A stretch of 64,000 bases of DNA from a virus (lineage: Duplodnaviria > Caudoviricetes): IMG/VR virus record IMGVR_UViG_3300043173_000386, positions 7,344 through 71,343 of that record. One strand, given 5' to 3'. Of the stretch, positions 1 to 64,000 are shown one piece after another. Numbering within the stretch: the stretch's first letter is position 1; every line of letters begins with the position of its first letter. A program made the position numbers and the translations under genes. The notes under the pieces are model-generated. The model saw only the letters and a program-made list of their open reading frames with translations. It had not been told where the DNA came from and made no database searches.

Positions 1-2
1 TT

Positions 3-3000: not shown

Positions 3001-6000
3001 TACGCGATATGCGTGTCCCGCCCGGCGCGTTGGATATGATCGTTCAGCATTTCGGTCACGAAAATGTGTCCGAGATTACGGGCCGAACAAAACAGAACAT
3101 CATCAACGATCAGGGTGAGCAAGCACAAATTAAAAAGCCATCGAACCCGGTGGCGGTGCAGAAGTTCCACGATGATGAGAAAAGGATTCTCGTTTTCTCC
3201 GGCGCCGGCGCCGTTGGTGCTGACTATCACGCTGATCTGAAATTCAAAAACCAGCGCAAGCGAAACCATTATGTTGCACAGCCTGGGTGGGAAGCCAAGG
3301 CGACGATGCAAGGCTTTGGCCGAACGCACCGCTCCAACCAGAAGCAACCGCCGCATGAGATTTTAGCCTCATCAAACATCAAGGCCGAGGCCCGGTTTAT
3401 GTCGTCCATTGCTAAACGATTGGATCAGCTCGGCTCACTCTCAGCCGGGTCGCGTGAATCGGGAGGGCAAGGGCTGTTTTCAGCAGAGGACAATCTTGAG
3501 AACGAGTACGGCGAGGCCGCAGTCAGAGACTTGTTCCGCGCGATCCTGAGTGGACGCATTGAAGGCATCACCGAGGAAAATCTTCAACTAGAAATGGGGC
3601 TTGAGAATCTTACCGATGATCTCAACCAGATTATCGAGAGCAAGCTGCCCGATGTGAAGCGGTTCCTGAATCGTTTGCTGTCAACCACACTGGAACGTCA
3701 AGACCTTTATTTTGATCACTTCTTTGAAATGTTGACCGCCAACGTCGAGGCTGCCATCGCCGCCGGCGACTATGACCAAGGCCTGCAAAATCTTCTCGCA
3801 GAATCCTTGGAGATTGTGCATGAGGAAGTCGTCTTTACTGACGAGCGCACCGGTGCCGAAACCAAGTACATGAAGCTGGAACTGACTGACCCCGTTACTT
3901 TTACGACCTTCCAAGAGATTGTGGATCTTGGTGTTACCAGTGGCCGGCAAATAATTAAGTTCGCCAAAAACATTCGCAGCGGCAAGCTGTATGCGTTTTA
4001 TGAGGCGCTCGATTTTGCAGACACTAAGACTGGCAACATCAAACAACGCTTCCGCCGGGTTGGCATCAACGGTCCCGGTGCGCTCGTACAAGCCGAGGAA
4101 ATTAGAACCTCGGACACTCAGTTCGGACGCAAGGCTAACTATGAAGCTCTCGATGTGCTTGCAGCGAAAGAGGAATGGCAAAAGCAAATTGACGAGGCGC
4201 CGACGCACCGGACTTGGCAGGAAAATATCATCAGTGGTCTGATGCACCCAATCAATGACAGGGTGGTTGGCAAGGCGCGCATCGTGCGTATGCTGACCAA
4301 CAGTGGTGAGCTCTTGATCGGTCGCATGATCGCGCAAAAAGATCTGGTTCAAACGCTTGGTAATCTGGAAGCCGCCGGCGCCAAGGTTAAGGCCGACAAC
4401 CAGCAGATTCTTGACCGTGTACTCAAGTCAAACTTTCGATACAAACTATCGAATGGCTGGTTCCTGCAGCGCGATGTGATCAACGGAGAGAGTCGCGTTT
4501 GGCTCAAGGGGCCATCCGGGTTTGGTGCCGAGGGCAACCAGCTCAAGAGCGATGGTGTCTTTACCGAAGTCGTCAACGGACAGACCCGGTTCTATATTCC
4601 AACGAAAAAAACGCTGGCCTCTCAAGTGCTGGAACGAGTGCTTGAAAGTCGCGATGTTGTGGACGAAATTCCACCGGACGTTGATCCACTCGGGGAGCGT
4701 GAAATTCCATACGATATGCGTCCGGATGCCACTGCTGGTACGCGCACGGCGGGCGCGGAACTGTTAAAGATCAGCGCCGACCGAGCTCGGGCAGCAGACC
4801 AACGGCCCGGCGAGATCACGACGCTGGCGACAGCCATCAACACTGAGCTGATTCAGGATCACAAGACCACGCTGATCGGTAAGACGGTCAAGACAGGCGA
4901 GGACTTGGCAACGCTCGCCCAGGTGTACCGGGATCCTCGATACGAAACGCTGCGTTATTTTGTGACCGACAAGGATGGCACGATCATCTATCAAACAGGC
5001 GTCAGCGCAAGGCTGCCCGGTTCAACCGCAGCATTCGCCGCCGGCAAAAACGTACTCGATCTCGCTATCGACATTAAAAAGGCTGTCGGCAGAGCCGGCC
5101 AACACCTGTGGATCATGCACAACCATCCATCGGGTGACTCAGCCCCATCGGCTGCTGATTTAGATATGACTCGCCAAATTTCAGAGGCATTGACCGGGCT
5201 TCGCCAGAGATTGACGGTCGATCATCTTGTTATCGACTCCAACGAATACTCCCACATTCAGGCTGTCATTCAGGAGAACGGCAGAGCGCAGATGAAAGTG
5301 CGCCCGAACATCAAACGTAACTTCGGTCGCGACCGGCTACTAGAGCCGGCGTTGCCTCACCCGTTGCTCAACACACAAGCGACCAGCGTGGGGGCGGTCG
5401 CAGACATTGGTGCTGCACTGCAACATGGTTCGGGGTGGGTCACTGTTGTTGGCGTCACGGCGCGCGGTGAAGTGCGGGCTTTAGGTGAAGTACATGAAAC
5501 GGAGCTCACCAAAACCGGCTCGTTGGCAAAACAGTTACGGAAATTTGGTCAGTCCACCGGCTCGGATAAGATCTACCTGGCTGGCGTCAATCCAGAAATG
5601 ATGTTCACGCGAAATATTTTTAAGAAGGCAGCGAAGTGGACAAAGGATCTCATCGAGCTCGGCTTCATCGAGGACGTTGTAGGCACGGACGGTATCTCTC
5701 TCCGGGTGTCAGATAGCGGCGTCGTGCCGTCAATCGACTTTGAGCTAGGCGTGAACGTAAAAGACCAGACTTTCGTTGTGCGAGAGCAAGGTGATGGCAA
5801 ATATGAATCTAACATAACGCAGAAGCAAACAGAGATCGTAGAAAAAACCCGAAAGGGCCAACCGCTCGACCGATTGCTGCGTTTCATGTTTACCGGCTTC
5901 GGCCTGTTTGAAGATCAATTTCTCAACAGCAAGGGCGAGTTCAAACTCGGCATCATCGCCCTTGAGCGAGTGAAAAGGCTGCTGACAACGGCTAAGTTCA

Positions 6001-8573: not shown

Positions 8574-8884
8574 ATGAAGGTAATCGTAAAAGTAGGGATG
8601 AGCTGATGGATTGGTTACTGCAATACCTTTGGGCGCCACTGGTGTTGGTTTGCGGATATTTCTGGCGAATGCTACACCGGCATGACAAAGAGATTGCCGA
8701 AGTCTCCGCTGCACACGAATCGACCGTTGCTGCTATAAACGACGCAAAGACCGGCCGCAAAGAGATCTACGATAAGATCGAAACCGTGCGAAAAGACCTC
8801 ACGGAGCAACACAACCAGCTCCGGAAAGACCAACGGGAAGATTTCAAAGATCTCCACAAAGCCATTGCAGGGATAGGTAAATGA
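8570..8884 (+). CDS. Membrane-anchored coiled-coil protein, putative holin/antiholin-type lysis protein
   Basis: One N-terminal hydrophobic segment (WLLQYLWAPLVLVCGYFW) then a charged coiled coil; GTGA overlap with the giant gene; immediately upstream of the endolysin. Confidence 0.6.
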   Translation: MNEGNRKSRDELMDWLLQYLWAPLVLVCGYFWRMLHRHDKEIAEVSAAHESTVAAINDAKTGRKEIYDKIETVRKDLTEQHNQLRKDQREDFKDLHKAIAGIGK

Positions 8885-9327
8885 GAGAAATTACCGATAT
8901 CATCGTCCATTGCAGCTTCACGAAGCCGAGGGAGAACCAAAGCCCGCGCATTGGGGTCGCGGAAATCAGACGATGGCACACAGATCCAAAGCCCAAGGGG
9001 CGTGGCTGGCGGGACATTGGCTATCATTATGTGATCAAACGCGATGGCACGTTGCAGCTCGGGCGGCCAATATCTCAGACCGGCGCCCATGTGAGGGGAC
9101 ACAATCTCACTTCCATCGGCATCTGCCTTGTTGGGGGGATGGACAAGCGTACCGGCAAAGCGGTCGATGATTACACCGACGAACAATGGCAGACGCTAAC
9201 TATGGTTGTTGGCGGACTGACCAATCAGTTTCATGGCTCCAAGGTGTCCGGTCACAACGACTGGACGAACGCGAAAACCTGTCCGAATTTCGATGTGAAA
9301 TTATGGTGGAAAACCATAGGAGGTTAG
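8881..9327 (+). CDS. Endolysin, N-acetylmuramoyl-L-alanine amidase (Amidase_2, T7-lysozyme-like)
   Basis: IIVHCS, GWRDIGYHYVIKRDG, GAHVRGHN, SIGICLVGG, GHND and KTCPNF zinc-amidase motifs. Confidence 0.95.
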   Translation: MREITDIIVHCSFTKPRENQSPRIGVAEIRRWHTDPKPKGRGWRDIGYHYVIKRDGTLQLGRPISQTGAHVRGHNLTSIGICLVGGMDKRTGKAVDDYTDEQWQTLTMVVGGLTNQFHGSKVSGHNDWTNAKTCPNFDVKLWWKTIGG

Positions 9328-9920: not shown

Positions 9921-10154
9921 ATGGAAGCCGTACTCATCCTGAAAATTATGAACATGGTGCAGGCCGGATTCGGTTGGCTTGCTGAACGTGGCATCCAAAA
10001 GGACAGGGTGCAATTCCTGATCGACCGGGCGGTACTCGAAAATCGCGATGTGACAACGGCCGAGGTACAGGTGGAACTTGACGCCACTCAGAAGGAGCTC
10101 GACGCGACCGCCGACGCTATCGCTGGCATGGAAGGTGGAGAGGAACCAACATGA
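9921..10154 (+). CDS. Hypothetical protein (77 aa), possible lysis accessory
   Basis: Tightly packed between neighbours; amphipathic N-terminus and acidic coiled C-terminus. Confidence 0.6.
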   Translation: MEAVLILKIMNMVQAGFGWLAERGIQKDRVQFLIDRAVLENRDVTTAEVQVELDATQKELDATADAIAGMEGGEEPT

Positions 10155-11077: not shown

Positions 11078-12480
11078 GTTACTTCCTCTCCGTTTTCAAG
11101 CCAATGCACCTTCACTGAATCCGGCAGTTTTGGCGGCTCTTTGAGTGTGCCAATCAACAGAATGTTGTTGTGTTCCTTGGCTACGCTGATCAACCATTTA
11201 ATCAGCTTGCCGCGGTTCGACAGATCGAGTACGTCCAGCCTGTCGAGTACCAGCAGACCGACCTCGGAAATGACGCTGATCGCTTCGGCAATGGTCGCTT
11301 GCGCCCGCCACTGGCTCGATTCAGACTGTAGGCCGAATGGGCGGTTATCCACCAATATATCCATCGTCGGTGTAACCACCGTCTGCGGCCATTGCGTCAG
11401 CATGGCGGTATTGCGGAGTCGGTCGTTCAGTGGTTTCAGCCTGTCGGCTACGATTTCACCGGGAATACCATCGGGCGCCAATGCCTCGGCAGCAGCAGCC
11501 CACGACGCCACAGAATGAGCGAAACCGGCCGCACGGTTGGCTACCGTGTCGGCGTGTTCGTTCCACTCCTGCTGGCGCTCAAGCAACTTCATGGCCTCTC
11601 CCGAGTTGTCGAAGGCCTCTTTGGCGTCAGTTACGGCCTGAGTCAGCTTTATCCGTTTCTTCTCGTCCTGCAGCGGGTGATCCTTGGTATCTTCCTCGCT
11701 GACCACGCGCACTGCGTTCTGCGTGTAATTCAGCCTGGCGCCGCAGCTCGGGCAATCGAATGATGTACCCATAGGCGAGCCCTTGAACGCCCCCATCGCC
11801 TGTTGTGCGGCAGCGTAGGCATCCTCGGCATCGTGACTCTCCTGTGTGACAGTCTTGAGCGTTTCCTCATCGACCTCTTTGTACTCGGGTTTCCAATCCT
11901 TTGCCTTCTCCGCGCCGTAGCGTTCGCCGGTCACGCCGGCCCACTCGCCTCTGGCTTCGGTCGCTTTCGACTTGGCCTCAGTGTGGGCGGCATCGAAGCC
12001 AGCGCGAAGGCTCGGCATGATCTTGTCGATCACAGGCTCAGGAATCTCCCGGTCCAACATTCGCTCTTTGACCAGCTCACGGTTCACGGTGATACCCAAC
12101 AGCCCGAACATGAACTTCCGGCGCTTCTTGGCATCCATCCAGCCATAACGGGTGGCATCGAGTAAATACTCGAGACTCACTGGCGGCTCAAGGCTCTCTG
12201 CCGTGCCTTTGGCAGTCGCCACATCACGCGCGTACATGCCAGTATCCATCACCACCTTGACCTGACCCTCTTTGGCGCCATCGGTAATCATCAGCTTGTA
12301 GTCACGCTTCATGCTGATCCGCTCAGTCTCACCCAACAGGCAATACCTCAAGGCTTCCTGCAGGGACGTTTTACCGGCCTCGTTGTGTCCAGCGAACAAG
12401 TGAACAATCGGCTCTTTCAGATCGACCTTTAATCGTCGCAGCCGCAGGAAGTTTGTTATTTCTATTCTTGTGATTTTCAA
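11074..12480 (-). CDS. SMC/Rad50-like ABC ATPase (recombination-associated)
   Basis: MKITRIEITNF start, Walker A AGHNEAGKTS, coiled coil with CPSCG hook, degenerate signature LQSESSQWR, Walker B LLVLDRLDVLD. Confidence 0.85.
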   Translation of the reverse strand: MKITRIEITNFLRLRRLKVDLKEPIVHLFAGHNEAGKTSLQEALRYCLLGETERISMKRDYKLMITDGAKEGQVKVVMDTGMYARDVATAKGTAESLEPPVSLEYLLDATRYGWMDAKKRRKFMFGLLGITVNRELVKERMLDREIPEPVIDKIMPSLRAGFDAAHTEAKSKATEARGEWAGVTGERYGAEKAKDWKPEYKEVDEETLKTVTQESHDAEDAYAAAQQAMGAFKGSPMGTSFDCPSCGARLNYTQNAVRVVSEEDTKDHPLQDEKKRIKLTQAVTDAKEAFDNSGEAMKLLERQQEWNEHADTVANRAAGFAHSVASWAAAAEALAPDGIPGEIVADRLKPLNDRLRNTAMLTQWPQTVVTPTMDILVDNRPFGLQSESSQWRAQATIAEAISVISEVGLLVLDRLDVLDLSNRGKLIKWLISVAKEHNNILLIGTLKEPPKLPDSVKVHWLENGEEVT

Positions 12481-12665
12481 GTTTGATCCTCGTAAAGTTC
12501 GTGGCGAAGAATGTCGATATCATCGTCTGCGTCAAAGCCAAGCCTGACCTCTTTCCCATGACCGGTATCCGGCAGGAACGCCAGCACGGAAATCCTGACC
12601 GGGTGCTTTCTTCCAGGCACGACGATATAAACTTCCTGACCGGGTTTTCTCCGTAGCGTCAGCAT
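12477..12665 (-). CDS. csrA: CsrA/RsmA-family translational regulator
   Basis: MLTLRRKPGQEVYI...VRISVL...EVRLGFDADDDIDILRHELY aligns with CsrA, retaining equivalents of L2, L4, R6, G9, R31, G33, A36, R44, E46, Y48. Confidence 0.85.
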   Translation of the reverse strand: MLTLRRKPGQEVYIVVPGRKHPVRISVLAFLPDTGHGKEVRLGFDADDDIDILRHELYEDQT

Positions 12666-12668
12666 TCC

Positions 12669-13760
12669 TTACTCCATTGAGAACTCGTTGTCCGTTGGGC
12701 CGGGATCACCGTCCGGTGGTGGAGGCGGGGAAGCAGAGGACTCTTTTTCCGACGCCGCTTGTGTGTCCTGGGCTGGCGCCGGCTGCTTGGGCTCGGACTC
12801 CGCTCCCCCACCAGTTGACTCTTTCTTGGCAGCGGTGCCACGCTTCTTTCGGAACGTGCCATCGTTGTTGAATACCGGGCCGTTCTCATTGGAAACGTGC
12901 GACTCCGGATCGTACTGCACTCCATTGGCATCGCGGATTACATCGGTAGAACCACCGCGGACCTCGGGTATGGCATCGTCAGTGTCCAGCACTTCGTAGT
13001 CGCCGGCGATAGCACGATCAAGCGATTGATCGGCACCACTGGCACCACGCTCGTCCAGATTGATACCGCGCGCCAGATCGACAGAGATTGGACAGTATTT
13101 TGCCAGCCGGCGCCATGCAGTCTTGCGTCCCATTTCGACAAAGTGATCTTTCCAAGGCCCGTACTCGCCCTTGGACTGCGACCGCTTCATGGTCAGCTCG
13201 ACAGCTTCGCGCGTCATTACCTCAAAGGCGTGGCCGCCATCTTTCATGTGTGCAACAGCGTAGAAGTGCGTTACCGGGCCTCGATCTCCGTCTGCCGGCT
13301 TGTGTTCCAACCGCTCGACCAATCCATACATATAATCGAAGTGATCGTTCTGGCAGACCTCATGCGCCGCGATGCTCACTATCTGACCGGAACGCCGCGC
13401 CAGATCAATCAGGCCTTTGTAGCCAATAATTACCTGAACGTCCGTGCGGTTCTTCTGCTTGTTGCGGAACGGAATCAGATAGGCGTGGCCGAGTACCGTG
13501 TTCGGCTCAAGTCCCATCATGGTGCATTGCATGATGCCGCCAATCAGAGAAGGCACGTAGCAGTTCTTCAATCCGGGCGTTGTGATTGCTACTTGGGTAG
13601 CCACTTGCAGCAGCCGTTCGGCTGACAAGTGTTTCGGCAACGCCGCCATGATCGCGTCTTTGTTTTGCTCAAGCAGATATTTCACCTGATCCTTGTGGTT
13701 CATTTGCGTGAGATCCTTCTTTCCCTCGGTTTTCTGTAGGTCTTTAATGTTTGTAGCCAT
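12669..13760 (-). CDS. recT: RecT-family single-strand annealing protein
   Basis: LPKHLSAERL, GLEPNTVLGHAYLIPF, QVIIGYKGLIDLARRSGQI, MGRKTAWRRLAKY; acidic disordered C-tail. Confidence 0.95.
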   Translation of the reverse strand: MATNIKDLQKTEGKKDLTQMNHKDQVKYLLEQNKDAIMAALPKHLSAERLLQVATQVAITTPGLKNCYVPSLIGGIMQCTMMGLEPNTVLGHAYLIPFRNKQKNRTDVQVIIGYKGLIDLARRSGQIVSIAAHEVCQNDHFDYMYGLVERLEHKPADGDRGPVTHFYAVAHMKDGGHAFEVMTREAVELTMKRSQSKGEYGPWKDHFVEMGRKTAWRRLAKYCPISVDLARGINLDERGASGADQSLDRAIAGDYEVLDTDDAIPEVRGGSTDVIRDANGVQYDPESHVSNENGPVFNNDGTFRKKRGTAAKKESTGGGAESEPKQPAPAQDTQAASEKESSASPPPPPDGDPGPTDNEFSME

Positions 13761-20196: not shown

Positions 20197-20561
20197 ACAA
20201 ATATCGCCGGCGGCACCGGTATCTCGGTGTCGTGTGGGCGCCAGATATGCAGCACGTTGTCGTGAATGTTGATGTGGCGCTCTGGTGGCAAATGGAGCTG
20301 CATCGCCGTTTCGTCGGCGTTGAAAAACAGCCGTTTGACGTACTCCATTTCCAGCCAAGTCGGAATCCGCTTGGGACAGGACACCGACACATGATCCCAA
20401 CCGGCGTCATTGGCGGCAACAACCTTCAACCGTTGTTTGCTCGGCGGTATCGCCGGCAGCAGGAAGGCGCCGCCATGCGCCGCTTCCTCGACAGTCTCAT
20501 TGACCGCAATCAAGTGTTCTTGGGGATGCCGGTGGTGATTTAGCTCGTTGAGATCGCGCAC
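20193..20561 (-). CDS. Conserved phage hypothetical protein
   Basis: GWDHVSVS...PTWLEM..VK.LFF..DE..MQLH...HIN.H...LHIWRP; GTG 20561 after a triple-GGA leader. Confidence 0.75.
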   Translation of the reverse strand: MRDLNELNHHRHPQEHLIAVNETVEEAAHGGAFLLPAIPPSKQRLKVVAANDAGWDHVSVSCPKRIPTWLEMEYVKRLFFNADETAMQLHLPPERHINIHDNVLHIWRPHDTEIPVPPAIFV

Positions 20562-20584
20562 CTGGTTGTCCTGTCCTGTTCCTG

Positions 20585-20734
20585 TCAAGTCTGTGGCGGG
20601 TCAATTTTAACGAGCCACCACTCGCCGCCACCGTTCAAATACTCGTCTGCGTACTCGGTGGCGGTGTTGCCATCATCAAACGGCCCAATGATACTCAGTC
20701 CGTCGATTGGATTACCGTGCAAAATAACATACAT
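20585..20734 (-). CDS. 49-aa hypothetical protein (not in ORF track)
   Basis: MYVILHGNPIDGLSIIGPFDD...; preceded by GAGGA. Confidence 0.6.
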   Translation of the reverse strand: MYVILHGNPIDGLSIIGPFDDGNTATEYADEYLNGGGEWWLVKIDPPQT

Positions 20735-20755
20735 TTCTTTTGTCCTCTACGTTAA

Positions 20756-21595
20756 TTAGGGGTGACTTGCCCTCTTTGCCTTGGCCTCATCGAGCCAGTT
20801 CAAAACGCTTGGCGCCGTTATAGTCCAAGGCTCGCGGGGCAATCCAGCGATAACCTGAAATTTGTAATCCTGATAAAACTGTTGGGTTTTGTCCTCGTCG
20901 TTCGTCACGTTGAATAAAATGGCATAGGCGAGCTGCGCCGGGCCTGATCCACCGTAGCCCCACGCGAACCCATCGGGGCTGTGATTCACTTTATCGAGGC
21001 ACTTGGGCAGCGGCGCGGTCAGGCGGCCTGTCTCCATCACCAATACGTCGCCCACATGCGGGTAATCGTCGCTTTCCGGGTTGTTGACATAGGTTCGGTC
21101 CATCACCCGCGCAAAGGCCTTGCGCTCTTTGTTTTCAATCGCCTCTTTGATGCGGCCGACCAGCCCATCGTCCAGATGAATCACCGGCAGATCGGACTTG
21201 CTGGCGCTCTCGGCCATTGCGTCGGTGTATTTCTGCGCCTGTTCCAGCGCACCCGCGGCATCGAGCCAGATCACTTTATCCATCACTGAGGTCGTCGTGA
21301 TACCGGCATCGAGGCTGGCGCTCTCGCCATCGACGGTACTGCCAACCATCACCATGCGGCCACAATACAGCGTGGGCGAATCAACCAGGGCGAACCATGC
21401 GTACTGCATCCAGTTGCCATTGTCGTCCAAGTAGCCGGTCGTTCCGCCGCCAAAATTCACGGTGCAGAACAGATCGCAGGGCCGATCGCCCTCGTCATTG
21501 CTAATCAGGCGTTGAATCTCCCGACAGTCGGCCTCGCTCTGTAGCTCGTAAACGCTGCGATCGTAAGGGTCAACTACTATTACTCGGTGTTCCAT
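20756..21595 (-). CDS. Two-domain hypothetical protein (DUF3846-like N-term + DUF6166-like C-term)
   Basis: VIVVDPY...YLDDNG...GRMVMVG; NHSPDGFAWGYGGSGPAQLAYAIL. Confidence 0.7.
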   Translation of the reverse strand: MEHRVIVVDPYDRSVYELQSEADCREIQRLISNDEGDRPCDLFCTVNFGGGTTGYLDDNGNWMQYAWFALVDSPTLYCGRMVMVGSTVDGESASLDAGITTTSVMDKVIWLDAAGALEQAQKYTDAMAESASKSDLPVIHLDDGLVGRIKEAIENKERKAFARVMDRTYVNNPESDDYPHVGDVLVMETGRLTAPLPKCLDKVNHSPDGFAWGYGGSGPAQLAYAILFNVTNDEDKTQQFYQDYKFQVIAGLPREPWTITAPSVLNWLDEAKAKRASHP

Positions 21596-21627
21596 GATTC
21601 CTCTCCTGTGTGTAAGTCGGTACTAAA

Positions 21628-21674
21628 TTGGGGCCAACCCGTAGGCACTCATGCGCCCCACCGGGCAGCCCCAA
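21628..21674 (-). promoter_or_regulatory. CGC-AUGA-GUG RNA hairpin on an extended stem (copy 1)
   Basis: UUGGGGC...GCCCG..GGGCGC AUGA GUGCCU.CGGGU.GCCCCAA on the minus strand, intergenic, upstream of the gene starting at 21595. Confidence 0.65.
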
Positions 21675-21721
21675 CCTGCTAACGACTCGTTGCAGTCTCC
21701 CAATCAGAGATATCGAGCCGT

Positions 21722-22336
21722 TCAACTCGCTTTCCGGTGCATCCGTGAGCGGCCCCGGTAGAAAATGCGCTTGAACTGTCCTTCTGGACTCTCGGCCAGT
21801 TCCAATTCCTGCGCCTTGCAATCAATCTCTTGCAGGGTGTCCATGCTCCAATCGTCGTCCTGTTCCATCGTTTTGAGCGTGAACTCAGCAAACTCAATTA
21901 GTCGCGCTTTCATGGTTGTCATGCCTTTATCCTCGATAGGTGTGGCGCTGATATCGAAATCCTCTAACACCTTGATTGGCACCGTTTCGTGAAAGTAATC
22001 AAGCGCGCTGCCGGGACTCTCGGCCTCAATGTCATACACGCCGACCACCCCTCGATCCAGTCCATGCAAATCCTCGGGCGCTCGGCCGCTTGTCACCTTG
22101 ACTCGATATTTCACGCGCGGCGCGATCTTGACCTCACAATCGGGCTGGTTCTCGACTGTTTCCAGCGGACACCCAACAGCCTCATTCCACTCGTCGCCGG
22201 GTCTGTCGCCTTCGCTTAGGTTGGCGATCCGCTTCAAAATGGCGGCGATCAACTCGGTTGGACTCGCCGGCCATTCGGCCGGTCTGTCCGTATCCAGGCT
22301 AAACGCGAACCCGTACAGGTGGTTGTACTTCTTCAC
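21722..22336 (-). CDS. Multi-domain hypothetical early protein
   Basis: GTG 22336 overlapping the upstream stop. Confidence 0.65.
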   Translation of the reverse strand: MKKYNHLYGFAFSLDTDRPAEWPASPTELIAAILKRIANLSEGDRPGDEWNEAVGCPLETVENQPDCEVKIAPRVKYRVKVTSGRAPEDLHGLDRGVVGVYDIEAESPGSALDYFHETVPIKVLEDFDISATPIEDKGMTTMKARLIEFAEFTLKTMEQDDDWSMDTLQEIDCKAQELELAESPEGQFKRIFYRGRSRMHRKAS

Positions 22337-22722
22337 AGCGCCGCCTCGGCCTTTTGCAAGGATTTGATTGCGTGTTCCGGCAGCTTGTATTTCTTGCCAT
22401 CGTCGCGTGTCGCAATGATCGGGAACTTGCGCGCCTTGGCGCTGATGCCGGCCAGCGTGTAGTGGTGGCCGTTGTAGTTGAAGGCCTCGCCGCGTTGATC
22501 CGCCTTGAGCCGGTAGAGCAAACACATTTGCTCGTATTCTTCCTTCTCCGGATCGTAGCCCTCGACCGCCACTTCCAGCTTGAACTTCACAGCATTGTCG
22601 GAATAGCTGGCGTTACCACAATGGATGGTGACGCCCAACTCCTTAGCCAGCGGCACAAGCGCCGCGTTCAGTTCGTCGCGCAGGGTTTTGCACAGTGCGC
22701 GTGTGATTTTCTCGATCTTCAT
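22333..22722 (-). CDS. Conserved phage early protein
   Basis: ATG 22722 after a triple-GGA leader; LRDELNAAL...FPIIATRDDGKKYK pattern. Confidence 0.75.
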   Translation of the reverse strand: MKIEKITRALCKTLRDELNAALVPLAKELGVTIHCGNASYSDNAVKFKLEVAVEGYDPEKEEYEQMCLLYRLKADQRGEAFNYNGHHYTLAGISAKARKFPIIATRDDGKKYKLPEHAIKSLQKAEAAL

Positions 22723-22787
22723 TCCTGTTCTCCTTTCCTTTGGTGTAAAGCAAGAAGGGCAACACTCGGAAGTGCTGCCCGTTTTGC

Positions 22788-23099
22788 TCACGCCAATTCG
22801 GGCGTGTATTTGAACGTGGCGCGGCTGTGCGGCTTGTTCATGGTCGCGGTCAGTTCGTTGGCCCTGATGCGGGCCTCATCCTCAGTAAACTCGCATTCCT
22901 CACCGTCTGCCTTGAGATAGGCTTGGTTGTAGCCAGTGATGCCGCCGCTTACCTCACACAAAATGCGCCAGTTCCGCACACCGTCGAAAATAGTCTCGCA
23001 TTCGACCACTTCCTCGTATTCGCCAAAGCGCGAAATTGGAACCTGGTGGACGATTTCGCCCGTTGATATGTGTCTGAATTGCTTGCTTGTGAATTGCAT
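22788..23099 (-). CDS. Hypothetical early protein
   Basis: Triple-GGA leader; WRILCEVSGGITG..AYLK pattern. Confidence 0.7.
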   Translation of the reverse strand: MQFTSKQFRHISTGEIVHQVPISRFGEYEEVVECETIFDGVRNWRILCEVSGGITGYNQAYLKADGEECEFTEDEARIRANELTATMNKPHSRATFKYTPELA

Positions 23100-23117
23100 T
23101 CCTGTACTCCTTTCCTG

Positions 23118-23471
23118 TCAGTGCCAATAGAGCGCGATCCACGTATCAGGGGCTAATTCCCTGACATACGCGATCGCTGCCCTGAGTTTGGGGTATTCGG
23201 CCACATAGGTCATGGCGGCAATGTCGCCGGCCTTGTAGATGCGAAACTCGTCGCCGTATGGGTCTGTGGTGCCTTCCATGTGGCCGTAGCCGGGCTCATC
23301 GTTGTCCAGCTTGCTCACATAGCTCGACCAGTTCACCGGCGGGTCATAGCCGCGTAGCTTCCGCAGTTCGTCGTGATATTCGTAATTGCTGCCTACATCA
23401 ATCAGCGTGTGGGCGTAATTGAAGTCCATCGAGCTAGTGCCTAGCACCAGAAATCCGAGGTCAACACTCAT
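23118..23471 (-). CDS. Hypothetical early protein
   Basis: Ends IALYWH; coupled. Confidence 0.7.
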   Translation of the reverse strand: MSVDLGFLVLGTSSMDFNYAHTLIDVGSNYEYHDELRKLRGYDPPVNWSSYVSKLDNDEPGYGHMEGTTDPYGDEFRIYKAGDIAAMTYVAEYPKLRAAIAYVRELAPDTWIALYWH

Positions 23472-23949
23472 GGCTGAAATCCTCGATAAACTTGTCGATT
23501 AACTCGTTGCGCCGGTCTTTGTCTTTCCAATCAGGCGGGCATTCGGGGATCAGGTCGGCAATGCGATCGCGCATGGTTGCGGTCAGCATGTTGTCACCCG
23601 AGGTCGTCGCGGCCAGATAGCCAATGCAGAACTTCACAAACTCCTTGTGATAGTTCCAAAATGTGTCGGTGTCGTCGGGATCGGTCAGCGCCAGATCGGC
23701 CACGCGCGTAATGAGTTGGTGTGCCATGTGGCGCAGTCCCATAGCGCGCTGTGCGTCTTTCCAGATACACGCTGCCGGGTGATTGTTGGCGGCGAAGGCC
23801 TCGACTGCGGCATGTGCGCCGCGGCCTCGCAAATAGACGCCATGATCGTCTGACATATCGGTGTACCAATCGAAGTGGTGTACCGCTAGGCAGAACTCCG
23901 CAAGGTCGCGGGGCGATTGTGGTAAGGCTTTGCTGCTTAATCTGCTCAT
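23461..23949 (-). CDS. Hypothetical early protein
   Basis: Triple-GGA leader; HHFDWYTDMSDDHGVY.RG pattern. Confidence 0.7.
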   Translation of the reverse strand: MSRLSSKALPQSPRDLAEFCLAVHHFDWYTDMSDDHGVYLRGRGAHAAVEAFAANNHPAACIWKDAQRAMGLRHMAHQLITRVADLALTDPDDTDTFWNYHKEFVKFCIGYLAATTSGDNMLTATMRDRIADLIPECPPDWKDKDRRNELIDKFIEDFSHEC

Positions 23950-23971
23950 TTCCTGTTCTCCTGTCCTGTGG

Positions 23972-24181
23972 TCAATCGTCTAGGGTTCGATCCTCAAACT
24001 TTAATTGCGCCTGAGCGTAAACAACTTCGGCCAGTTCCTCGGCCAGATCAGCGTCCCGCTCAGTGCTGAATACCGGGCCGGATGCCACGCTAATCAGCGG
24101 TATGTCTAAAATGGATTCGTCAAGGTCGTACACAACCACCTTGCAGCGCCACTTGCCTGTGATGTGGTCAAGCCGGCTCAT
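23972..24181 (-). CDS. Hypothetical early protein
   Basis: ATGA overlap with the upstream stop. Confidence 0.6.
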   Translation of the reverse strand: MSRLDHITGKWRCKVVVYDLDESILDIPLISVASGPVFSTERDADLAEELAEVVYAQAQLKFEDRTLDD

Positions 24182-24390
24182 TTCCTCGCCTCTTGTTTGA
24201 CCACCTTCGCCAGCACCTTGTAGATGGCGCGCTTGGTGGCCTTGATTGCGAAATCCTCGCCCTGCTCTCGCAGCACGTTATGGGCCGCATGTAGCGCAGT
24301 TGGGCCGGCATCCTCGATCGCCTCGACCAGCAACATCGCGCTGGCGGTGACAATCTGCTCCTGTTCTTTAATCGCTAATTCTCTGCTCAT
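24178..24390 (-). CDS. Hypothetical early protein
   Basis: ATG 24390 directly after the upstream stop. Confidence 0.6.
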   Translation of the reverse strand: MSRELAIKEQEQIVTASAMLLVEAIEDAGPTALHAAHNVLREQGEDFAIKATKRAIYKVLAKVVKQEARK

Positions 24391-24391
24391 A

Positions 24392-24733
24392 TCAGTATCC
24401 CGCGGCTTCGGCCGCATAGTCTCGTTGGCTGGCGTCTTTCACTTGCCAGTTGGGCCAGCCATCGGCGCTGATTTCTTCCAACCTGGCGGTGAGGTCGGTG
24501 TGCTGCGTCAGTCGTCCGTCGCAGTCGGTTCCGTCCGTAGTGATTGCCATGAGTAGCTCGCCGCGATCGAGGCTCCACGTATAGCCGGTGTGCGTCCAAC
24601 CTTCGTCATGGGCCTCGCCAAAACCCCAAGACAGGGATTGGCCCGGTTTGAGCGTTAGCGTTACCTCGCCCTCGTCTGGTCGGAATTTGAAGCGCGCATT
24701 GGGTGTGCCGGCTACCTGAGAAATAAGATTCAT
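24392..24733 (-). CDS. Conserved phage early protein
   Basis: NARF...LTLKPGQSL.W...DEGW...DGTDCDGR...QRDYAAEAAGY; AGGAGA RBS. Confidence 0.75.
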   Translation of the reverse strand: MNLISQVAGTPNARFKFRPDEGEVTLTLKPGQSLSWGFGEAHDEGWTHTGYTWSLDRGELLMAITTDGTDCDGRLTQHTDLTARLEEISADGWPNWQVKDASQRDYAAEAAGY

Positions 24734-24743
24734 TTTGTTTCTC

Positions 24744-25676
24744 CTAGACAAGTGTGAGCTGATGTGCTGTCGCGGCCCGGCCCCATTGATTAGCAAAGGC
24801 GGCGGCGATCCCGAGGTAGGTTCTGGCTCGATCCATCCAACGGGTATCGGATGGGCCTAGCTTGTTGTATCCGTTATCGGTCTGATTGGCCCAACGGGGC
24901 TTACCATCCACATAGCGGGGTTTGACGTATTCGGTGGGCTGTAGCAATGGCAAATTCTCAAGCCACAGGCCTGTGTTCTTGCTGGCATCCTCACCAAACT
25001 CGTTGGGTTGTATCCACTGGTCGGCCGGGCGTATGCGGGTGCCGATAACGCCGCGCGGGTTCTCAAGGCATTTGCGCCTGATCTTGGCGCCTAGCAACTC
25101 GCGCACAAAGTCCAGTGCTTCCTCGCGCGCTGCCCTGCGTTCTGCGCCTATCAGGGTGCCGGCCGCTATCTTCTTGGTCTGTACGTCGCGGTAGCACCAT
25201 TCGGCCGAACTGGTGAGGTAGGTGCAGTCGGGAAAGGCCAGCATGGTGTCCCAACCGTCGTTAATAATGTCGCGAACGTCGCCGCGATAATGGGGGCCGG
25301 GCTGTTCACTCTCCAACAGGTCGCAACTCAGAGCATCATGGCCCAATGCCAAGAACTCGTCGCGTACCCTGCCTGAGAACTCACAGGCGACCAGCACTCG
25401 GGATAAGGCATACTGCGCCACCCTTGCCCGGCCCCACGCTTCTGTGACCGCTGGCTCGATATCCGCCCACGAATCAACGTGTGGCATCTGCTTGTGAACG
25501 GCCGACTCCATCCATGCGTGTGCGTCGTCAAAATCAAATACATGGTCGATTTGAGGATCATGCTCTGCCACGTTCCTCAAATTGATCTGTGTCAGTTGGC
25601 TGCTGGTATGCGCTACCCGAACAGCCGCCGAGAAATCAGCGGCCAGCCGGGTAACGTCGAGCCCATGCGAGTGCAT
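24744..25676 (-). CDS. C5-cytosine-methyltransferase-like protein with N-terminal fused domain
   Basis: RVLVACEFSGRVRD...SCDL...GDV...WD.M.AFPDCTYL...LENPRG...IQP.EFG..ASK.TGLWL..LP.L; extra ~90-aa N-terminal domain. Confidence 0.75.
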   Translation of the reverse strand: MHSHGLDVTRLAADFSAAVRVAHTSSQLTQINLRNVAEHDPQIDHVFDFDDAHAWMESAVHKQMPHVDSWADIEPAVTEAWGRARVAQYALSRVLVACEFSGRVRDEFLALGHDALSCDLLESEQPGPHYRGDVRDIINDGWDTMLAFPDCTYLTSSAEWCYRDVQTKKIAAGTLIGAERRAAREEALDFVRELLGAKIRRKCLENPRGVIGTRIRPADQWIQPNEFGEDASKNTGLWLENLPLLQPTEYVKPRYVDGKPRWANQTDNGYNKLGPSDTRWMDRARTYLGIAAAFANQWGRAATAHQLTLV

Positions 25677-25678
25677 GT

Positions 25679-26032
25679 TCACGCGGCAGCGGCTCTCTTG
25701 TAGCCAGCGGCCCACTTGACCACGGCATCCTTGAGCGCCTTCTGCATGTTGGTCATTGGCCGGTATCCGTACTCGGCCATGCTCAGGTCGTCGCGACCAA
25801 TGGCCTCAAGCGCCGCCGTGACATTCATCAATTTCATTTCGATGCTGCCTTTGGATCGTGCGACCAGTGCGCCAAATTCGCCGCCGGGCTGTTGCAGTTC
25901 CTCGCCTCTGGCGTGTCGGATCATTGCGGCCTTGTTGTAATCCTCGCCGTGGGTGGAGTGCCACCACATGCTGCGATACAGGATTAGCGTGTGTCCGATT
26001 TCGTCGGCAGTCCAAGGGCCGGCGCCTTTCAT
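25679..26032 (-). CDS. Stand-alone domain resembling the N-terminal domain of HNH/restriction-type nucleases
   Basis: WT.DE...Y..M...G..YNK...RSKGSIEMKLMNV.A.L...G...GYRP..N.Q..L; ATG 26032 in ATGA overlap. Confidence 0.55.
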   Translation of the reverse strand: MKGAGPWTADEIGHTLILYRSMWWHSTHGEDYNKAAMIRHARGEELQQPGGEFGALVARSKGSIEMKLMNVTAALEAIGRDDLSMAEYGYRPMTNMQKALKDAVVKWAAGYKRAAAA

Positions 26033-26355
26033 GGGCAACACCCACAACACGGTGCATCTTCGCAACGTGGCCCTGATTTGCCGAGGAACGTGCCATCGGG
26101 TGAATAGGCGCCAGTGGGATCATAGTGGCTGGCGATACGGCCGGGCGACCAGTTCTCGCTTTCCTCTTGGGTGAGGGCTCGGGGGCTGTCATTGCCGTTG
26201 CGCTTGGCATTGGTGTTGACATACGGCTTTTGCTCATGGCACTCAAGGCCATAGATATGTTTCGGCCCGTAGTACCGGGCGCGAGCGCCGGCCGGCAAGG
26301 TGGCGCCACAATCGGCACATACCGCCTCGCGTTTAAGGGTGAGTGTCTTAGCCAT
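26029..26355 (-). CDS. Cys-rich early protein (CEDAPCCGCC family)
   Basis: N-terminal CADCG...CH and C-terminal RCEDAPCCGCC. Confidence 0.75.
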   Translation of the reverse strand: MAKTLTLKREAVCADCGATLPAGARARYYGPKHIYGLECHEQKPYVNTNAKRNGNDSPRALTQEESENWSPGRIASHYDPTGAYSPDGTFLGKSGPRCEDAPCCGCCP

Positions 26356-26386
26356 CGGTTTCTCCTGTCCTGTTGTGAAAGCAATA

Positions 26387-26410
26387 AAGAGCCTCGGCAA
26401 GCGGGGCTCT
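26387..26410 (-). terminator. Possible intrinsic terminator/attenuator inside the early operon
   Basis: Minus strand AGAGCCCCG-CUUGC-CGAGGCUCU (one mismatch) followed by UUAUUGCUUU. Confidence 0.4.
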
Positions 26411-26419
26411 GTGCTGCTC

Positions 26420-26620
26420 TCAGGGGCCGGCAAATATCACCGAATCCTGAGCGTCCAGAACTCGCCAGAACTCCACTGCTGTCCAGCGGCTAAACAAGTC
26501 CTGCGCCGCGGCCTTGGCATCGTCGGCAGTCTCAAAGGTCACGGCGTTGCCGGTAAAGACGCCATCGCGATCGCCATAGGTGTTGACCTGATATCGAAAG
26601 GGTTTGGGTTTGGTGTTCAT
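26420..26620 (-). CDS. Small conserved early protein
   Basis: GNAVTFETADDA..AAQDLFSRW..V..WRV; triple-GGA leader. Confidence 0.7.
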   Translation of the reverse strand: MNTKPKPFRYQVNTYGDRDGVFTGNAVTFETADDAKAAAQDLFSRWTAVEFWRVLDAQDSVIFAGP

Positions 26621-26715
26621 TCCTGTACTCCTGTCCTGTGGTGGTGAATCCGAATCAATATGATGAATAGAAAGTGCGCCAAGAAAAGCAGTTCTGTTGT
26701 CGCCATTACGTCCAT
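26617..26715 (-). CDS. Possible 32-aa hydrophobic peptide
   Basis: MDVMATTELLFLAHFLFIILIRIHHHRTGVQE fills the gap; weak RBS. Confidence 0.3.
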   Translation of the reverse strand: MDVMATTELLFLAHFLFIILIRIHHHRTGVQE

Positions 26716-26719
26716 GCCG

Positions 26720-26974
26720 TTAGTCCTGTGGGTTTGCGTATTCGGGGTCATTGAAGAAGGGATCGTCGGGGCCGTTCTCGTTTTCGTACACTGAACCGCG
26801 GCGCGTGAACGCGGCAACGGCTTCGTCAATCTGACGCAGGGCCGGCGAGGGTACGTGCTGTTTGAGTATGTCGCGGAGTAGCGATTCCAGTACCAGCCAA
26901 TCGAGCTTGCGGTCTGGTCGATCCCATAGAGCGTCGATGCGCTCGTTGATCGTCGGGCGGGGTTCTTCGGCCAC
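26720..26974 (-). CDS. First gene of the leftward early transcript, hypothetical
   Basis: GTG 26974 preceded by ACAGGAUAAGGAGAACAGGAUA. Confidence 0.65.
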   Translation of the reverse strand: MAEEPRPTINERIDALWDRPDRKLDWLVLESLLRDILKQHVPSPALRQIDEAVAAFTRRGSVYENENGPDDPFFNDPEYANPQD

Positions 26975-27019
26975 TATCCTGTTCTCCTTATCCTGTACCT
27001 GAATAATAGGCCCAAACTG

Positions 27020-27048
27020 TTGCAATTACCACACTTTGAGGCTAAATT
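27020..27048 (+). promoter_or_regulatory. Sigma70-type rightward promoter TTGCAA-N17-TAAATT
   Basis: Exact 17-nt spacer; upstream of the Cro-like gene; same architecture recurs at 34161 and 34772. Confidence 0.6.
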
Positions 27049-27072
27049 TCACGGCTCACTTGGGGTTCAATA

Positions 27073-27318
27073 ATGACAAAAAATAGCGGCCCAATTCGCG
27101 AGCTGGCCGACAATCAACTGATTGACGAGGCGGCCGATTTCCTGCGAGACAATAAGGGGACTCTGACAGCTATTTCCGATGATATCGGCATACCTGTACG
27201 GTTCTTCTATGATCTGGTCGCTGGCCGGGTCAAGAATCCCGGCGTCAGGCCGATTGAGAAAATACTGAGGTACAAGCGCCTGACCGGCGAAGAACTCCAA
27301 TCTGGTCTGCTATCGTGA
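27073..27318 (+). CDS. Cro-like helix-turn-helix regulator
   Basis: LTAISDDIGIPVRFFYDLVAGRVKNPGVRPIEKIL HTH pattern; first gene at the divergence point. Confidence 0.75.
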   Translation: MTKNSGPIRELADNQLIDEAADFLRDNKGTLTAISDDIGIPVRFFYDLVAGRVKNPGVRPIEKILRYKRLTGEELQSGLLS

Positions 27319-38569: not shown

Positions 38570-39508
38570 ATGAGCAAAGACGCCGCTGCGGTAGCAGCAA
38601 CCGATACGCCGACCGACGATGAGCAGGCAGCAGCAAAACCCGGCCTGTCTGACGAGGAAAAGGCCGCTTTAGCCGCCGAAGATGATCAAGCCGGTGGCGG
38701 CACAAAAGACGATAAGGCTGCAGACGCGGCAAATCCTCCCCTGGATGCGGCTGACGCCGATTCAACTGCTGATGCCGCTGCCGGCGCTTCTGACGACAAA
38801 CCAGACGCACCGCCCGAAATACCGCGTGGTGCCGCGGCCAACGTAAATCTGCAACCGTCGCGAGCTGTCGATTTGAACCTTGTCAATGAGCGATTGGGAA
38901 CCCTTACCGACCTACAGGCCGATTTGGACAAGAAGTACGACGATGAGGATTTGACCGCTAAGGACTATCTGGCCCAATCTCGCGATATCACACAGGAAAC
39001 CGCCGATCTCAACGCAGACATACGTGAGGCGCATTTCGTTTCCAGTGCCAACGCAACGCTCGCAGTGACCGATTGGCAGCGGTCGGTCAACGATTTTGTT
39101 GACAGCAACGCCGAGTTCAGCAGCAGCATCATGCAGGGCGCACTGAACGCTGCACTGAATGAGCTGTACACAGAGGAAGCTAATTTCGGCTCGTCGCACA
39201 ACTGGTATTTGCAAACGGCGAAACGTGCCGTGCTTGAACAAATTTCGCCGGCCGACGCGGCTGCCGCTAATCCATCGGACGCGGATCCCAATGCCAAAGC
39301 AGTCGCCGCAGCCAAGGGCGCTGCTGATAAAGCCGCCGACGCCAAGGGCAAGTTGCCGAAAACACTGAGCGACGTACCCGCGGCTGACGACGCCGGCACC
39401 GGCAAGGATAAGTTTGCCGATATCGACAATCTTGAGGGCGTCGAGCTGGAAGCCGCCTTGGCAAATATGACCACCGAGCAAGAACAAGAGTATTTGCGGG
39501 CCGAATGA
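38570..39508 (+). CDS. Putative capsid scaffolding protein
   Basis: Acidic Ala/Asp-rich, coiled, between portal and capsid; C-terminal LEAALANMT.EQ..YL. Confidence 0.75.
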   Translation: MSKDAAAVAATDTPTDDEQAAAKPGLSDEEKAALAAEDDQAGGGTKDDKAADAANPPLDAADADSTADAAAGASDDKPDAPPEIPRGAAANVNLQPSRAVDLNLVNERLGTLTDLQADLDKKYDDEDLTAKDYLAQSRDITQETADLNADIREAHFVSSANATLAVTDWQRSVNDFVDSNAEFSSSIMQGALNAALNELYTEEANFGSSHNWYLQTAKRAVLEQISPADAAAANPSDADPNAKAVAAAKGAADKAADAKGKLPKTLSDVPAADDAGTGKDKFADIDNLEGVELEAALANMTTEQEQEYLRAE

Positions 39509-39726
39509 TGGCTCGCGTTTTTTTAACCGTAAAAACCGGGAAAACGCTCTACATTGACGTAGCCAAGCTATTTCCCGAACTCGTTCTGAATGGTGCGGGG
39601 CAAGTGTCTCTCACCCTAAGAGCAAAGAAAGGAAGATCGGCCCGCTTTGAAGTTGTTGCAGATGAGAGGGTGTTCATAGACTTGCACCCCCAAAGTAGTG
39701 TAAAACTCGCAGCGGATACTCAGTAA
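39505..39726 (+). CDS. Divergent CsrA-fold protein
   Basis: LTVKTGKTLYI...VSLTL..K.GRSARFEVVADERVFI follows the CsrA beta-strand pattern but lacks the HREE (R44) motif. Confidence 0.55.
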   Translation: MMARVFLTVKTGKTLYIDVAKLFPELVLNGAGQVSLTLRAKKGRSARFEVVADERVFIDLHPQSSVKLAADTQ

Positions 39727-63533: not shown

Positions 63534-64000
63534 TGGCTGCTGAATTTGAAGAACTGACGGAAGAAGAACGCCTTCGTCAAGAAAGGTTGATTCTTGAGAA
63601 GGCTGGCCCACCGCTTAAACTGGCGCTACCGCCCGAGCTGCGCTTTGAAGGCCAGCCGTTTGCGATACCCGGCGCACCCGATCAGGCCGCAGTAGCCGAG
63701 CATGATCAGATCCGGATTGACGTTGCGCGGGAACAACTCGCTAAACCCTTTGGCGACGAAACACCAGAGGAACTCGCCAAGCTGCGCCGTGAGGCCAAGC
63801 TGGAACCGGAGAATGTGGCAGCGCCGGCGAACAATTTCCCGACCTTCACACCGCCGCCGCAAGTCTCAGGCAACGCCACAGAGCCTTTGTTTACGGCCTT
63901 TGGCACCGAGGAACCGGCGCCAGTGCCGACCGAACAGCCAGAGATTGATCTGGCAACTGTGTCGGATGCGGCCTTCAATGCCCCGTTACAGCCCGGCAGG
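63533..64000 (+). CDS. 3'-truncated protein, probable ejection/internal virion protein (not in ORF track)
   Basis: TAATG coupling; MAAEFEELTEEERLRQER... open to the window end. Confidence 0.7.
   Translation, partial: MAAEFEELTEEERLRQERLILEKAGPPLKLALPPELRFEGQPFAIPGAPDQAAVAEHDQIRIDVAREQLAKPFGDETPEELAKLRREAKLEPENVAAPANNFPTFTPPPQVSGNATEPLFTAFGTEEPAPVPTEQPEIDLATVSDAAFNAPLQPGR

Follow-up and report, generated by a model that had tools for sequence, protein, structure and literature searches.

The stretch of DNA analysed here, referred to throughout as the window, comprises 64,000 nucleotides (bases 7344-71343) of the complete 71,343-bp virus record IMGVR_UViG_3300043173_000386, and the element of interest is a short leader carrying three GGA words that directly precedes the start codons of several small genes. 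The window is organised into two divergently oriented blocks. The minus-strand block (~27.0 to 10.8 kb) begins with small genes of unknown function, followed by genes for a PD-(D/E)XK nuclease, RecT, CsrA and an SbcC-like ATPase; it is called early on the basis of position and content only. The plus-strand block starts at 27,073 with small genes and continues through the small and large terminase, portal, capsid and tail genes. A divergent intergenic region of 98 nt (26975..27072) separates the presumed early block from the packaging and structural block. The portal is ~41% identical to those of Bcep22-like podophages (among them Itty13, PEp14, PBC5 and GP4).

The leader has the consensus ACAGGA-(C/A/UA)-AGGAG-(A/U)-ACAGGA, is 19-20 bases long and, in front of five minus-strand genes (starts at 26974, 26620, 23949, 23099 and 22722), ends 0-2 nt short of the start codon; a variant is present at a sixth site. 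All copies are on the minus strand and fall within the 6.5 kb adjoining the divergent promoter region. Leader 1 (ACAGGAUAAGGAGAACAGGA, 26977..26996) heads the first gene past the divergent intergenic region and ends 2 nt before the GUG at 26974; it has one extra base and was detected by a scan for GGA clusters. Upstream of it the intergenic region contains a conserved block, CAAAGUGU..AUUGC.ACAGUUUG, and a simple scan of the same 98 nt matched no sigma-70-type promoter. Leader 2 (ACAGGACAGGAGUACAGGA, 26621..26639) abuts the AUG of a 66-aa open reading frame (ORF) at 26620. Leader 3 (ACAGGACAGGAGAACAGGA, 23951..23969) lies 1 nt before the AUG of a 162-aa ORF at 23949, while leader 4 (ACAGGAAAGGAGUACAGGA, 23100..23118) abuts that of a 103-aa ORF at 23099. 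Leader 3 starts 2 nt past the upstream stop codon and the first base of leader 4 is overlapped by an upstream UGA stop; because they begin at or 2 nt after a stop, these two leaders are pure intercistronic junctions. Leader 5 (AAAGGAAAGGAGAACAGGA, 22723..22741) abuts the AUG of a 129-aa ORF at 22722 and sits 8 nt past the T-tract of a strong hairpin resembling an intrinsic terminator (22757..22780, minus strand; 10 bp, six of them G-C pairs). The variant (ACAGGAACAGGACAGGA, 20569..20585) precedes the GUG of a DUF7694 protein at 20561 and holds three (A)CAGGA words, the third GGA being 7 nt before the GUG, where, judged by its spacing, it could be used as a Shine-Dalgarno sequence. Finally, there are two versions with only two GGAs: ACAGGACAGGAG (26362..26373), before the AUG at 26355 and preceded by a hairpin and T-tract, and ACAGGAGAGGA (21599..21609), 3 nt before the AUG of a DUF6166 protein at 21595 and preceded by a long conserved structured element. 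The eight leaders quoted in the initial annotation of this DNA are all present on the minus strand where it placed them.

A search with the 19-mer ACAGGAMAGGAGWACAGGA, allowing up to 3 mismatches, returned five minus-strand matches, spanning 22723 to 26639, against an expectation of 0.03 from 100 dinucleotide shuffles, none of which reached five. Leaders 2, 3 and 4 match without mismatches, leader 5 with one, and the two-GGA version before 26355 with three. Leader contents were then counted using our own gene calls and the 25 nt before each start, comparing the 16 genes of the promoter-proximal part of the minus block (20.5-27 kb) with the 74 other genes. Leaders with at least three GGAs were found for 6/16 proximal genes and 1/74 others (Fisher p = 8e-5), so the enrichment of GGA in early leaders that the initial annotation proposed to look for is present. 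A GGA lies 0-2 nt from the start codon in 6/16 proximal genes and 3/74 others (p = 8e-4), and CAGGA occurs in 8/16 and 4/74 leaders, respectively. Moreover, ACAGGA is the most enriched hexamer among the leaders of the genome (9 leaders, p = 2e-7). Plus-strand leaders contain a mean of 0.79 GGA and three GGAs in only one of 56, in agreement with the earlier statement that most late genes have a single Shine-Dalgarno sequence. Outside the early-proximal block, one leader alone reaches three or more GGAs (GGAAGGUGGAGAGGA, 10127-10150, plus strand, gene at 10151), and it lacks CAGGA. A promoter role for the word was considered and rejected: it overlaps upstream stop codons, its centre is a Shine-Dalgarno sequence, and the sigma-70 scan gave nothing.

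Nine triple leaders from three phages are available for comparison. Seventeen of the 20 columns are invariant, including all three GGAs and the ACA before the third (GGA3), and variation is seen only in column 2 (one A for C, before GGA1) and in spacer columns 7, 8 and 14. The outer GGAs are separated by 10 nt (13 nt from centre to centre). The start codons are secure, an AUG or GUG following directly after the leader word each time, and the middle AGGAG lies at Shine-Dalgarno distance from them (7-9 nt), as the initial annotation had recognised. No alternative in-frame starts were found 5-10 nt past GGA3, so that this last GGA, usually 0-2 nt from the start codon, is not a working Shine-Dalgarno sequence; here too the earlier description was correct. 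The leaders are weakly structured, with G-poor, CA-rich tracts before them, and around GGA3 only a 2-bp CA/UG closure is conceivable. A search of the leader region gave no match to the Rfam Csr/Rsm families up to E = 1, and three chance matches to unrelated families. Terminator-like hairpins number 15 between 20.0 and 27.4 kb, the part of the genome holding the leader-bearing block, compared with 7.0 ± 2.8 in shuffles (~2x); in the rest of the minus block (10.5-20.6 kb) there are 11 against 11.5, i.e. no enrichment.

Exact-pattern scans of IMG/VR and metagenome contigs gave more than 100 single unrelated matches, with one contig (L002, see below) as the sole relative among the matches listed, and two early proteins used as single-protein queries found no viral relatives. 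On these searches, the leader word appears not to be a widespread element. It is, however, carried by three related metagenomic phage contigs, often ahead of unrelated genes. The first, L005, is a 14.6-kb JGI contig with syntenic gene order and a CsrA 89% identical to that of the window phage; it has triple leaders at starts 512, 1287 and 2292, two-GGA versions at 2525 and 4836, and a variant of the 20569..20585 type at 3535. The second, L002/L177, is an IMG/VR contig with an 82% identical terminase, the first early gene of which has a triple leader yet is not homologous to the first gene of the window. Its orthologue of the gene at 26355 has a two-GGA version, ACAGGAGAGGACAC-AUG. The third, L006, carries the variant word and CsrA. 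Words related to the variant are found at the same junction in L005 (3535-3548) and L006 (165-178), with different genes behind them. Where a relative spans both loci, csrA and triple leaders occur together (L005, with three triple leaders), and no genome with the leader and without csrA was found among the relatives compared.

Pairwise alignments show that the intergenic cassettes are near-identical between relatives and that identity collapses at the start codon, with unrelated ORFs behind (regions compared: window 22700-22830 and 26955-27090, L005 1190-1310, L002 1515-1650). The cassettes are of three types, in which the leader is combined with a promoter block, a terminator or a structured element. 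The terminator-plus-leader-5 cassette, hairpin included, is kept in L005 before an unrelated ORF, and the element upstream of the 21595-type leader has in L005 a complete triple leader and an additional 78-aa gene behind it. This structured element, ~95 nt long (GGGGC..GCAUGAGUGC..GCCCC, then AAUUUAGUACCGA; window 21575-21740, minus strand, upstream of the DUF6166 gene), shows ~97% identity between the window phage and L005 (2170-2320), while the leader and gene behind it differ. Conversely, orthologous genes bear triple, double or plain leaders (23099 versus L005 225, 21595 versus L005 2525, and 26355 versus its orthologue in L002). The alignments evidently place the leader at the joints of early-gene cassette exchange, whatever reads it, and the repeated word very likely doubles as a microhomology joint for that exchange. 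The pattern appears to be one of modular exchange of early genes, similar to that at the PeSL cassettes of T4-type phages; the window phage has genes for both RecT and a PD-(D/E)XK nuclease.

The candidate trans-acting factor is the product of csrA (12477..12665, minus strand, 62 aa), which lies between the genes for RecT and the SbcC-like AAA ATPase, on the same strand as the leaders and 8-14 kb downstream of them. The product matches Pfam PF02599 with 40.9 bits (cut-off 27, E = 2e-10; 38.4 bits in a six-frame search) and is the only PF02599 match in the genome. Equivalents of CsrA residues L2, L4, R6, R44 and E46 are kept in an alignment to the canonical CsrA of a more distant phage, G005 (MLTLRR / MLILTR, ILRHELY / VHREEIY), R54 and E56 corresponding to R44 and E46. 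Judged by profile and alignment, the gene is a real but divergent csrA. Used alone, its product found no solved structure at E = 0.001 and, by tblastn, nothing in cultured phages at E = 1e-3, while metagenomes contain ten homologues with 70-92% identity. When the minus-strand genes and the five initial plus-strand genes were scanned with Pfam, the only domains recognised, csrA aside, were RecT, PD-(D/E)XK, an SMC-like AAA ATPase, the small terminase or DUFs. No other recognisable RNA-binding domain was found among these genes by Pfam, and most proteins of the minus-strand block belong to no Pfam family.

The csrA gene's own leader (GGAGUAAGGA-AUG, 12666-12682, minus strand) includes the RecT stop codon and has a GGA abutting the AUG. 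Autoregulation through this sequence was considered, and is weak and doubtful because the second GGA is missing in L005 and L006. A possible second gene of CsrA fold at 39505-39726 (plus strand) was also considered and not used, since Pfam gave no match to it at E = 0.1 and hhalign, run against the CsrA profile, a probability of 2%. This small ORF lies between the scaffold-like and capsid genes, the place of CsrA in Bcep22-like phages, and has a homologue at the same place in G005. In L006 a Tad6-domain gene (5790-6389; PF25188, an anti-defence family) is inserted right after csrA, a hint that the surroundings of csrA serve as a slot for counter-defence or accessory genes. In the literature csrA is reported from 30/2517 phages (~1%), including Bcep22-like phages with csrA-less Burkholderia hosts (PMC7366521), and the function that CsrA serves in phages is described as unknown (PMC7366521, PMC9144972). 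The CsrA of phage JC1 may be virion-associated (PMC9144972). No cognate phage target set for a phage CsrA is described in these papers on phage csrA (PMC7366521, PMC9144972).

The leader recalls the targets of CsrA, RsmA and RsmE (glgC, hcnA, csrA), which likewise have several GGAs, one on the Shine-Dalgarno sequence and others flanking it, and a CAGGA core; here too a csrA-family gene is at hand, in the phage genome, whose dimer could bridge two sites (PMC7652899). The CsrB repeat is published as CAGGA(U/A/C)G, confirming the earlier remark that CAGGA is its core, and ACA and GGA are 100% conserved in ligands obtained by in vitro selection (SELEX; PMC7652899). Known CsrA sites overlap the Shine-Dalgarno sequence, one dimer bridges sites 10 to 63 nt apart with an optimum above 18 nt, high-affinity sites are usually hairpin loops, and the R44A substitution is reported to abolish binding (PMC7652899). 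The phage leader differs in having no hairpin loops, in packing its sites into 19-20 nt at the minimum bridging distance and in matching the SELEX consensus only partially; moreover, the phage protein is divergent and its putative targets are the early mRNAs of the phage itself.

As a class of repeat, the leader most resembles the start-associated sequences (GGGATAGGAGCCC) known from Cluster K mycobacteriophages. Each is a short and asymmetric word with an AGGAG core, present in multiple copies and placed a few nucleotides from start codons. They precede non-structural genes only, in one orientation, with non-homologous genes behind, and are conserved in relatives. Both contain positions unable to pair with 16S rRNA, and the function of both is not known (PMC3203893). 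The mycobacteriophage elements, however, have GGG..CCC arms and ~15-20 copies per genome, against three GGA words and 5-8 copies here. The phage and host groups are unrelated, and only here is a candidate binding protein (CsrA) phage-encoded. By all of these features the leader appears to be the same kind of element as the start-associated sequences but, being unrelated in sequence, not of the same family.

Three systems of T4-type phages offer further parallels. RegA of T4 is a small phage RNA-binding protein that competes with the ribosome at the starts of ~30 earlier mRNAs, at operators that overlap or abut the AUG and have no secondary structure (PMC3014915). Its fold is unrelated to that of CsrA, though, and its operators are A+U-rich with no clear consensus. 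The target of T4 RegB and S1 is an 11-nt single-stranded site with an invariant 5' GGA followed by an A-rich tract, in early Shine-Dalgarno regions (PMC1702504); the leader resembles it in being early-gene-specific, single-stranded and centred on a Shine-Dalgarno sequence of the GGA(G) type with A-rich sequence after it, but its flanking CAGGA words lie outside the RegB site. Six-frame searches of the complete genome found no homologue of either protein (RegB, PF10715; RegA, PF01818). The PeSL cassettes of T4-type phages are conserved intergenic cassettes that flank variable small early ORFs and mark gene-replacement joints (PMC2839356, PMC4122927). The corresponding cassette of the window phage consists of terminator-like hairpin and leader. 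It differs in that no promoter was recognised in it and that the conserved word is the ribosome-site leader itself.

We tentatively favour the reading that the triple-GGA word is a start-associated translational operator of one small phage clade, read by a dimer of the CsrA family, of which the phage's own CsrA is the likeliest. The middle AGGAG would recruit the ribosome, while the dimer would bind the (A)CAGGA words on either side, of which one lies ~5 nt upstream of the Shine-Dalgarno sequence and the other abuts the start codon. Because csrA lies 8-14 kb further along the same strand, its product would build up later and would then hold GGA1 and GGA3 of one leader as in a clamp, with the Shine-Dalgarno sequence and AUG buried in between. 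The first early proteins would thereby cease to be translated, following the logic of T4 RegA with a CsrA fold. We infer that CsrA would bind the leaders, that binding would repress rather than protect, that it would act with this timing, and that the ligand would be the phage and not the host protein. Several observations point to a reader of the flanking words that is not 16S rRNA: the spacing of GGA3 from the start codon is non-productive; the ACA in front of GGA1 and GGA3 varies little or not at all yet adds no pairing to the anti-Shine-Dalgarno sequence; and the variation among copies spares the GGAs, AGGAG and the ACA before GGA3. An operator for such a dimer would show what is found here, three invariant GGAs, of which GGA2 belongs to the Shine-Dalgarno sequence and GGA3 is 0-2 nt from the start, and the retention of the leader while the gene behind it is swapped is expected of a regulatory tag.

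A number of findings weigh against reading the leader as a CsrA operator. Minimum-free-energy folds and pairing probabilities of the nine leaders revealed no shared hairpin displaying the GGAs, which are variably paired (unpaired probabilities 0.02 to 1.0). The 10-nt gap between the outer GGAs equals the published minimum for bridging by a dimer, well short of the optimum above 18 nt (PMC7652899), and the words match the CAGGA core of CsrB but not the full SELEX consensus ACA-R-GGA-UGU. The phage CsrA has ~10 inserted residues in the beta1-beta3 region, and a profile built from it and its ten metagenomic homologues reaches RsmE/CsrA structures at E = 0.015-0.5 only; with such divergence its RNA specificity may differ. 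Outside the early block, a GGA also lies 2 nt ahead of the AUG of the late scaffold-like gene at 38570. Furthermore, the sharp loss of identity exactly at the start codon is also expected from recent recombination at a shared word, with no trans factor. Binding and its effects on expression are predictions made from sequence.

The distant relatives count on the same side. G003 (71,247 bp; terminase 55% and capsid 82% identical) keeps the order RecT-CsrA-AAA, with a CsrA scoring 43.9 bits, and in G005 (47.6 kb) the CsrA, ~5 kb downstream of RecT, is a canonical one (86.7 bits). The triple-GGA leader is absent from both, their early leaders being ordinary single Shine-Dalgarno sequences with UAGGAG as the top leader hexamer, and neither has homologues of the leader-bearing genes. 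As csrA is present in these phages and the leader is not, the conserved function of this CsrA cannot depend on the leader; its conserved role would lie elsewhere, possibly on host mRNAs. The absence of both the leader and its genes suggests that the leader is a younger feature of one sub-clade. Conservation beside csrA, which the initial annotation had proposed to examine in relatives, is therefore seen at close range only, in L005 and as a variant in L006, and is not seen in G003 and G005 despite their csrA. The wider claim of that annotation, that these early genes form a regulon silenced by CsrA, fares similarly: a real, non-random, promoter-proximal set of leaders and a CsrA gene in the same genome stand behind it, whereas the lack of a shared hairpin and the leaderless csrA-positive G003 and G005 do not fit.

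A different possibility, less probable than not but deserving of attention, is that the leader acts in cis only, as a very strong, unstructured, purine- and CA-rich ribosome-binding cassette in which a central Shine-Dalgarno sequence and Shine-Dalgarno-like standby sites give high early expression. Its spread would be due to recombination, and the near-identity of copies would reflect copying and use as microhomology joints by RecT and the nuclease, both encoded by the phage, rather than recognition by a regulator. The central AGGAG is ideally spaced in every copy, and the weak structure and G-poor, CA-rich upstream tracts described above are those of such a cassette. The near-identical cassettes with identity collapsing at the ATG before unrelated ORFs, and the orthologues with triple, double or plain leaders, are equally in keeping with it, as is the fact that CsrA-bearing relatives manage without the leader. 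There is also precedent in the PeSL cassettes of T4-type phages, which mediate modular shuffling (PMC2839356, PMC4122927). What this explanation accounts for poorly is the GGA 0-2 nt from the start, which is not productively spaced and would be expected to compete with the true Shine-Dalgarno sequence, and the (nearly) invariant ACA before GGA1 and GGA3, which adds none of the usual anti-Shine-Dalgarno pairing. That the variation in nine copies leaves the GGAs, AGGAG and the ACA before GGA3 intact suggests selection on the words and not mere recent copying, and the highly expressed late genes for capsid, portal and terminase have no such leader. On the evolutionary side, however, this explanation and a CsrA operator are not mutually exclusive.

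The remaining explanations retain a trans-acting reader of another identity. It is improbable, though conceivable, that this is a RegB-like endoribonuclease cutting at GGAG and an A-rich tract, an unrecognised small early RNA-binding protein, or a DNA-binding protein that uses the ACAGGA direct repeat in the manner of a stoperator. GGAG-AACAGGAA loosely fits the T4 RegB/S1 target (PMC1702504), the many early proteins with no Pfam family could include such a factor, and the motif is asymmetric and in one orientation, like stoperators and start-associated sequences (PMC3203893). Yet RegB and RegA are missing from the genome, the tight coupling to the start codon (0-2 nt) favours a role in RNA or translation over a DNA site, and no candidate protein could be pinpointed. 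Host CsrA is a very unlikely ligand, whether titrated by the early mRNA as by a CsrB-like sponge or gating early translation according to host physiology. The ~18 GGA words in six leaders of one transcription direction and the CsrB-like CAGGA core are what suggests it. On the other hand, the nearest prophage terminases are mostly from Rhizobium, with at most 54% identity over partial matches, and chromosomal csrA is reported to be missing from Sinorhizobium meliloti (related to Rhizobium) and Burkholderia cepacia/cenocepacia (PMC7366521). A sponge, moreover, need not sit exactly on start codons. The earlier suggestion of such a sponge finds no backing here, the GGAs belonging to leaders of coding genes and being presented neither in hairpin loops nor in anything matching a Csr/Rsm RNA family.

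With regard to the wider genome, the prophage terminase matches reach at most 47% identity at full length; they are mostly from Rhizobium, with a few from Paraburkholderia and Pararobbsia, and are spread over alpha-, beta-, gamma- and deltaproteobacteria. Among cultured phages, a search at the DNA level matched a methyltransferase fragment only, and no tRNA genes were found in the window. A single giant ORF of 4827 aa (genome 1433-15916, window 1-8573, plus strand) precedes lysis-type genes, among them an Amidase_2 homologue at 8881-9327. A virion protein of Bcep22 is reportedly smaller, at 4602 aa. The ends of the record (window 63887-64000 versus genome 1-120) code for near-identical sequence with at least one mismatch, which suggests a terminal repeat or a circularly permuted assembly.

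The leaders and csrA could together make up a private translational timer, with the regulator made late in the early operon and turning off the earliest proteins through a dedicated operator at their starts, in a host that possibly has no CsrA; we regard this as a doubtful but worthwhile proposition. If true, it would be the first defined cognate regulon of a phage-encoded CsrA. The set of leaders beside csrA offers a directly testable hypothesis for the function of phage CsrA, and would be a compact operator in which to study how one CsrA dimer may close a ribosome site. Apart from CsrA, the leader provides a second clear example of a start-associated sequence, outside the mycobacteriophages, and its cassettes show regulatory sequences serving as apparent joints for the exchange of early genes.

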